Part shown: positions 2,779 through 3,119 of the stretch, piece by piece
Layout: the number at the start of each line of letters is the position of its first letter
How positions within the stretch are numbered: position 1 is the stretch's first letter
Source: Escherichia coli
GTDB taxonomy: Bacteria; Pseudomonadota; Gammaproteobacteria; Enterobacterales; Enterobacteriaceae
Reading direction: 5' to 3' (one strand)
Assembly: GCF_013122565.1 (NCBI RefSeq)
Contig: NZ_CP053258.1
Length of the DNA stretch: 64,000 nucleotides
Made by a program: the position numbers and the translations under genes
Notes under the pieces: model-generated
Database searches by the model: none
Seen by the model: the letters and a program-made list of their open reading frames with translations, nothing else
Told to the model about the DNA's origin: nothing

Positions 2779-3119
2779 TGGCCTTTAATGCGTAACACTA
2801 TAGCCCCTTGTATTTTTCTTTGAAAGTTATCCTTCAATAATATCGACAATTCGAAAAGAAAATCATGGGTCAAAAATCGCAACGAAAATAGCTTAATACA
2901 TTGAAAAATAAATGAATATATTCATATTTATGCAGAGGTGTCATTGGTTTCACTTGCAAAGTAAAAAACAAATTAAGTTATTTTTTGTAAGTTATTTTGA
3001 TGATATTCGACATGCATCACGCTTTTTTCCGCTTTTGCTGTGCTAGTTTGCTTTCAAAATGAAAGTGAAGATTCTCTTTCTTCATTTTGTAAGGCGAACG
3101 ACAAATAACAGGAGCTGCG
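2779..3119. promoter_or_regulatory. AT-rich divergent promoter/operator region between the DeoR regulator and the aldolase-ABC operon; 14-bp perfect palindrome ATGAATATATTCAT at 2912..2925
   Basis: 341-bp AT-rich gap between divergently oriented genes; perfect palindrome seen directly; AGGAG RBS at 3108..3112 before the aldolase ATG. Confidence 0.45.

Follow-up and report, generated by a model that had tools for sequence, protein, structure and literature searches.

Does a perfect 14-bp palindrome in the gap between a DeoR-family repressor gene and a divergent aldolase–ABC transporter operon of Escherichia coli serve as the operator of that repressor? The gap occupies positions 2779–3119 of the 64-kb stretch of DNA analysed here (the window). 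It is 341 bp long, with a GC content of 32% against 51% for the whole window, and is flanked by a 276-aa open reading frame (ORF; 1948–2778, minus strand), whose start codon lies at 2776–2778, and by a 284-aa ORF (3120–3974, plus strand), whose ATG lies at 3120. The palindrome, ATGAATATATTCAT, at 2912–2925, equals its own reverse complement and occurs in a single copy in the window. The original prediction, which proposed it as an operator for the adjacent repressor, had given its position and sequence exactly and had described the gap correctly as AT-rich. Our analysis leads, with a probability of roughly 80%, to a different assignment: the gap is a switch operated by the repressor TagR and by CRP, with CTTWCAAA-type boxes, and the palindrome is not a TagR operator, but most likely a chance feature specific to the E. 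coli lineage.

The D-tagatose island and its divergent control region

The locus is the E. coli D-tagatose island, tagK–tagR / tagYABCDE, because family matches for all genes agree with the RefSeq annotation and the published regulatory elements are found at the expected places. The repressor gene tagR (1948–2778, minus strand) belongs to the DeoR/GlpR family according to both Pfam and RefSeq. Its product combines an N-terminal HTH_DeoR domain (Pfam PF08220, residues 16–67, 52.9 bits against a cut-off of 21) with a C-terminal DeoRC sensor domain (Pfam PF00455, residues 88–219, 58.3 bits against a cut-off of 31.8). A PDB sequence search with TagR for a liganded homologue gave no match at E ≤ 1e-3. 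In the same 'reg' operon, tagK (981–1916, minus strand; coordinates carried over from the UTI89 RefSeq annotation) encodes a second, PfkB-type sugar kinase, which matched the NCBIfam tagatose kinase model at E = 1e-103 with a score under the curated cut-off; the gene has been named in PMC12226905. On the other side of the gap, the tagYABCDE operon (3120–9477, plus strand) was assigned from NCBIfam and Pfam matches, the UTI89 RefSeq annotation and the function reported in PMC9720028. It comprises tagY (3120–3974), which encodes a GatY-type class II tagatose-bisphosphate aldolase, followed on the same strand by genes for a ribose-type periplasmic binding protein (4010–4900), an ABC ATPase (4961–6460), a permease (6461–7450), a tagatose kinase (7472–8434) and a DUF4432/aldose-epimerase-like protein (8431–9477).

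The island is missing from K-12. In UTI89, the 8.5-kb tag block is placed between yhdT–panF and accC–accB, and a 701-bp segment around the gap had matches in 1,422 of 5,426 complete E. coli genomes at 97–99.4% identity. The D-tagatose cluster was found in E. coli Nissle 1917 (EcN) and in the B2 phylogroup by Ha et al. 2022 (PMC9720028). On tagatose, tagYAB were upregulated more than 1000-fold and all six tag genes more than 40-fold, and tagR–tagK just about 2-fold (PMC9720028). The expectation that the whole island would be inducible was thus borne out for the operon, and was overstated for tagRK.

The gap itself has been studied by Park et al. 2025 (Microb Cell Fact 24:158; PMC12226905), who named the genes tagK, tagR and tagYABCDE and investigated the 341-bp intergenic region. 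Across the 8.5-kb locus, differential RNA sequencing (dRNA-seq) of tagatose-grown EcN detected two starts only, one 64 nt upstream of the tagY ATG and the other 11 nt upstream of the tagR ATG (PMC12226905). The promoters predicted there are Ptag (−10 TAGTTT) and Preg (−35 TTCAAA, −10 TATAGT), together with a CRP site (TTCGA-N6-TCACG) and two predicted TagR operators, tagO1 (CTTTCAAAATGAAAGTAAA) over the Ptag start and the adjacent tagO2 (CTTACAAAATGAAGAAAGA) on the opposite strand (PMC12226905). Tagatose raised the output of a reporter carrying the gap more than 10-fold, plasmid-borne tagR silenced this reporter and glucose repressed it, and the repressor role of TagR was supported by overexpression as well as by reporter assays (PMC12226905). 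Others have thus shown where transcription starts, that tagatose induces, that excess TagR represses and, by experiment, that the locus is under catabolite repression (PMC12226905), and the region as a divergent, repressor-controlled, sugar-inducible switch is already published. In these respects the original prediction of a divergent control region, from which the adjacent DeoR-family protein represses the aldolase–ABC operon, agrees with the literature (PMC12226905, PMC9720028). The palindrome, the additional boxes described below as OA, OB and OB', autoregulation and looping are not mentioned in PMC12226905.

We mapped the published elements to the window, and tagO1, tagO2, the CRP site, both −10 hexamers and the Preg −35 all lay at the expected spacing. 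Preg (2789–2824, minus strand) has its transcription start site (TSS) at 2789, its −10 hexamer at 2797–2802 and its −35 hexamer at 2819–2824; consistently, an independent promoter consensus scan returned TTCAAA-16-TATAGT at Preg, and this block is kept in orthologues. The Ptag core (3044–3056, plus strand) consists of TAGTTT at 3044–3049 and the TSS at 3056. The published Ptag −35, TTTTTG, is missing at the stated spacing in the window allele, which has TTTTTT at 3023–3028 instead. The predicted CRP site, TTCGACATGCATCACG (3006–3021, plus strand), matches the published one exactly (PMC12226905), and its TCACG half is invariant among the orthologues. Centred at −42.5 relative to the Ptag TSS, it overlaps the −35 in a class II-like arrangement, whereas PMC12226905 puts the site 'just upstream of the −35'. 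A terminator scan of the gap found none, and an Rfam scan of 2700–3200 (E ≤ 1) returned sub-threshold matches only (best 23.8 bits against a gathering score of 47) and no RNA element. Compared with the tagR–tagY region of EcN (PMC12226905; cluster first reported in PMC9720028), which has the same length of 341 bp and the same flanking genes, the window carries the CRP site and tagO2 unchanged, shares the −10 hexamers and has one mismatch in the 19 positions of tagO1. There is no difference in kind: the window holds another E. coli allele of the same locus, 97–99% identical.

Position and conservation of the 14-bp palindrome

Relative to the published dRNA-seq starts, the palindrome occupies −131 to −144 from the Ptag TSS (centre −137.5) and −123 to −136 from the Preg TSS (centre −129.5), and overlaps the −35, −10, +1 and early leader of neither promoter. 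With starts at 3056 and 2789, neither promoter includes the palindrome, the very arrangement that the original prediction had named as evidence against an operator. DeoR-type repressors can use remote auxiliary operators, as established for E. coli DeoR. Distance alone therefore does not exclude an operator role; position was not taken as decisive, and comparative evidence was used.

As a statistical feature, the palindrome is only marginally unusual. Perfect palindromes of at least 14 bp arose in 6.8% of 20,000 dinucleotide-preserving shuffles of the 341-bp gap and in 4.5% of mononucleotide shuffles. The whole window contains 9 such palindromes, against 4.7 ± 2.1 in shuffles, so that one in its most AT-rich gap is unremarkable. 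The core of the palindrome, TGAATATATTCA, gave no match in a full-text search of 8 million papers.

A TagR scan of one genome per species identified ten loci, from a divergent E. coli lineage (E69), Superficieibacter, two Enterobacter, three Trabulsiella, Klebsiella spallanzanii, Izhakiella and Lelliottia, and in 8 of the 10 tagY is divergent from tagR. The helix-turn-helix of TagR (residues 10–67) is nearly invariant across all ten proteins, including that of Lelliottia (37–38% identical overall), and its operator should therefore be conserved too. In an alignment of nine gaps, in which the window was compared with eight orthologues, conservation was sharply blocky. Identities to the window were highest at tagO1 (0.91), the OA block at the Preg −35, TTTTTCTTTGAAAGTTA (0.89), tagO2 (0.85), the Ptag −10 (0.82), the Preg −10 (0.79) and the OB block, at 2983–2999 in this comparison (0.78), followed by the CRP site (0.61) and OB' (0.45). 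They were lowest in the spacer at 2831–2911 (0.29), at the palindrome (0.23) and in the spacer at 2926–2948 (0.18).

The segment with the palindrome is deleted in 4 of the 8 orthologues, namely the three Trabulsiella, with gaps of 221 bp, and Enterobacter BIGb0383, with a gap of 244 bp. E. coli, Enterobacter ENT03 and Superficieibacter have the central 100–120 bp of the gap, which these four lack. The palindrome core was found in none of the ten loci, and at the palindrome position E69 carries ATAAGAAATATTTT. The palindrome thus is not conserved together with the DNA-binding domain of its supposed regulator, and this non-conservation is established by the present analysis.

E69, a GTDB representative labelled E. 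coli, is itself divergent: its TagR and TagY are 92% and 95% identical to those of the window, and its gap carries many substitutions, compared with the 97–99% DNA identity typical of E. coli. Such divergence points to an ancient split between alleles or to a separate acquisition of the locus.

Within the species, a 30-mer spanning the palindrome is found unchanged in 1,117 of the 1,422 E. coli genomes. In at least 203 of the 1,422, the substitution A2918T breaks the palindrome, giving ATGAATTTATTCAT, and about 100 differ otherwise around it. Among eight strains, 23 of the 30 polymorphic positions of the gap fall within 2839–2981; the palindrome thus falls where the gap is least constrained. 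Among the eight strains, one of the 14 palindrome positions varied, against about 2.3 expected from the central-spacer rate, a comparison on too few sites to carry weight. The intact palindrome in 1,117 genomes and the single variable position are compatible with weak constraint and equally with recent common ancestry.

That frequency within E. coli is among the points in favour of a second reading, in which a host factor other than TagR, for instance a nucleoid protein (H-NS, Lrp, Fis or IHF) or a dimeric regulator of TGAAT..ATTCA, would bind the palindrome specifically in E. coli and tie the acquired island into host regulation or silencing. The gap is AT-rich relative to the window and the island is absent from K-12, and H-NS-type proteins bind AT-rich DNA of this kind. 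Moreover, the arms TGAAT and ATTCA resemble those of ARG boxes and Cra sites. An ARG box has TGAAT and ATTCA separated by 4 bp and normally occurs in tandem pairs, and a Cra site (TGAAWC-GWTTCA) has a central CG. Matches of the palindrome to consensus sequences, an indicative comparison only, were weak throughout: Cra 10/16, Fur 11/19, Lrp 11/15, CRP 12/22 and IHF 7/9. Together with the lack of conservation beyond the species, a common allele that breaks the palindrome and the fruitless literature search, these scores make a host-factor site unlikely. Both specific candidates were rejected on these consensus sequences: the arms lie 2 bp apart, where an ARG box has 4, and no second box is present, and the central dinucleotides are AT/AT, not CG, with the 10/16 match, at odds with a Cra site.

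In a third reading, the palindrome would supply the −10 element for a promoter, on one strand or the other, that is cryptic or active under certain conditions only and that would provide an extra upstream start for tagY or tagR. Promoter-like sequences do overlap 2912–2928, with ATGACA-18-TATATT (10/12) on the minus strand and TTGAAA-16-CATATT and TTAATA-18-TATATT on the plus strand, and the TTGAAA at 2901–2906 is kept in the four long-spacer orthologues. The number of promoter-like sites found by the scan, four against 1.6 ± 1.5 in shuffles, is not significant, and the −10-like hexamers are unconserved in the orthologues. The dRNA-seq covered tagatose-grown cells only, which leaves room for a condition-specific start near the palindrome; those cells, as noted above, gave just two starts in the 8.5-kb locus. 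On balance we consider such a promoter very unlikely.

Two further features of this segment were noted. The TTGAAA at 2901–2906, part of ATTGAAA, has unconserved surroundings and is −35-like, with no conserved −10 after it. A 44-aa ORF beginning at the ATG of the palindrome (2912–3046) was rejected: neither a TSS nor a Shine-Dalgarno sequence precedes it, and orthologues have lost its ATG.

CTTWCAAA boxes and the proposed TagR/CRP switch

The conserved blocks of the gap share a motif. TTTGWAAG (CTTWCAAA on the other strand) has 6 matches in the 64-kb window, 4 of them inside the 341-bp gap, against a mean of 0.05 in shuffled gaps, and CTTWCAAA boxes are found at equivalent positions in every orthologue. 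We built a 24-nt box matrix from 30 orthologue boxes only. Its top five placements in the window were tagO1, OA, OB', OB and tagO2 (25.8 to 12.9 bits), and the next, unrelated placement scored 2.5 bits. The conservation and multiplicity of the boxes are established by this analysis, and the boxes are likely the binding sites of TagR, as judged from their conservation alongside its helix-turn-helix. By contrast, the best placement overlapping the palindrome scored −1.9 bits, and the CTTWCAAA core common to the five conserved boxes is missing from it. With a position outside both promoters, absence from the orthologous gaps and a score of −1.9 bits against 12.9–25.8, the palindrome finds no support as an operator.

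DeoR-family proteins are oligomeric and able to bridge separated operators. We nevertheless give almost no weight to the palindrome as an auxiliary, distal operator that cooperates with promoter-proximal sites through DNA looping: TagR belongs to this family, the palindrome is roughly equidistant from the two promoter blocks and its half-site, AAATGAAT, has AATGAA in common with tagO1 and tagO2, but no orthologue keeps it despite the invariant helix-turn-helix, four functional-looking loci lack the whole segment, the box-matrix score is below zero with no CTTWCAAA core, and at least 203 E. coli genomes carry it broken. That proteins of this family are oligomeric is also cited in PMC12226905.

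Of the two predicted operators already published, tagO1 (3051–3069, plus strand) lies over the Ptag TSS, has 1 mismatch in 19 to EcN tagO1 and scored 25.8 bits. It contains an interrupted dyad, CTTTCA-AAA-TGAAAG (3051–3065), over the start site. tagO2 (3075–3093, minus strand), in the tagY leader at +20 to +38, matches the published sequence exactly, scored 12.9 bits and is inverted relative to tagO1 (inverted repeat I3).

Three more boxes were recognised. OA, CTTTCAAA (2813–2830, minus strand; core 2819–2826), is an exact TTTGWAAG match (placement 2809–2832, 18.5 bits) that overlaps the Preg −35 and is a candidate TagR autoregulatory site. OB, TTTTGTAAGTTATTTTG (2978–2999, minus strand; core 2984–2991; placement 2974–2997, 14.6 bits), lies just upstream of the CRP site, centred near −68.5 relative to the Ptag TSS, and forms direct repeats with OA (D1) and with tagO2 (D4, 102-bp spacing). 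OB', CTTGCAAA (2953–2960, plus strand; placement 2947–2970, 16.0 bits), is degenerate, with 1 mismatch, and we regard it as a tentative box because its conservation is merely 0.45; in Superficieibacter, the corresponding position carries an exact CTTTCAAAATGAAA. The boxes form two convergent pairs, with cores 31 bp apart in OB'–OB and 35 bp apart in tagO1–tagO2. What is new here is modest, namely three more TagR-type boxes that are conserved and a central spacer that is dispensable.

In Klebsiella spallanzanii, no tagY separates tagR from the gene for the binding protein; the 514-bp gap (locus L008, 3487–4000) holds six CTTWCAAA boxes, as both OA and OB occur twice. In Lelliottia nimipressuralis (L010, 4001–4801), the TagR homologue has an almost identical helix-turn-helix, with the same tagO1/tagO2-type boxes and an adjoining aldolase that is 70% identical. 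The DNA-binding module has been kept while the sensor domain diverged, so that the protein may respond to a different sugar.

In the switch that we propose, Ptag (TSS 3056) would drive tagYABCDE in dependence on the CRP site at about −42.5, and TagR on the CTTWCAAA-type boxes would shut Ptag, with tagO1 across the start and tagO2 in the leader. OB, with the weaker OB', and OA would probably contribute to repression, and D-tagatose or a phosphorylated product thereof would release TagR. The palindrome would be a chance feature of a dispensable AT-rich spacer between two promoter/operator blocks, lacking a regulatory role that depends on its sequence and serving at most as spacer or loop DNA.

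Sugar-phosphate effectors are known for DeoR and GlpR. By this family precedent, a sugar phosphate would be favoured as the effector of TagR as well, and the constitutively co-expressed tagK would fit. D-tagatose itself was taken as the effector, by assumption, in PMC12226905.

We infer that TagR would bind the boxes, loop the intervening DNA and autoregulate its own gene; OA, OB and OB' suggest autoregulation and a multi-operator, possibly looped, repression complex. A specific version, which we offer tentatively and think somewhat more apt to be wrong than right, involves all five boxes. OB'–OB (2953/2984) and tagO1–tagO2 (3051/3086) would bracket the CRP site and the Ptag −10, and OA (2819) would lie on the Preg −35; a bridging TagR oligomer would then loop out Ptag and weakly autoregulate tagRK, with the AT-rich spacer as a linker of variable length. 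If true, looping could explain the induction range of more than 1000-fold, and autoregulation through OA could explain the approximately 2-fold induction of tagRK; the overlap of OA with the Preg −35 fits this modest response.

The tagatose switch is being developed into an inducible expression system for E. coli Nissle, a probiotic, and it matters which parts of the 341-bp fragment are needed. The central 110–120 bp, including the palindrome, could probably be trimmed, and OA, OB and OB' would be worth keeping or testing when the promoter is minimised or tuned. The locus also counsels caution, in that a perfect palindrome beside a repressor gene in an AT-rich gap was not the operator. To expect a palindromic operator was reasonable, but the wrong palindrome had been picked: the likely operator is the interrupted dyad of tagO1, which a search for perfect palindromes misses.

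Related systems and other palindromes

The tagO1 dyad is in keeping with the palindromic operators of the DeoR/GlpR family. E. coli DeoR/deo and GlpR/glp, whose regulators belong to the same family as TagR, have palindromic, multiple and looping operators. The 14-bp palindrome matches neither of their operator consensus sequences (DeoR 8/16, GlpR 11/20).

Among named NCBIfam models, the best for TagR was AgaR, the DeoR-family repressor of the N-acetylgalactosamine (aga) cluster of E. coli K-12 (E = 4e-30). TagR is not an AgaR equivalog, because it scored 104.7 bits against the AgaR cut-off of 260. The two systems are alike in that the genes are laid out divergently, several repeated T/C-rich boxes take the place of a single palindrome, a CRP site is present and the regulated operon encodes a class II tagatose-bisphosphate aldolase; the analogy has also been drawn in PMC12226905. 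They differ in transport, which is by an ABC system in tag and by a PTS in aga. The CTTWCAAA motif was derived from tag loci alone and implies no likeness to AgaR sites.

The longest perfect palindrome in the window is elsewhere, a 22-bp sequence, TGATGAAGATTAATCTTCATCA, at 62045–62066. It spans the 3' end of a 90-aa ORF (62054–62326, minus strand) that follows a 284-aa ORF; in size, order and context, the two resemble npr/ptsO and rapZ, and a terminator or processing hairpin is a possible role for the palindrome. Three perfect palindromes of 16 bp were also found, AGCAAATCGATTTGCT at 43266–43281, TTTCAACATGTTGAAA at 49189–49204 and CCAGCATATATGCTGG at 60400–60415.
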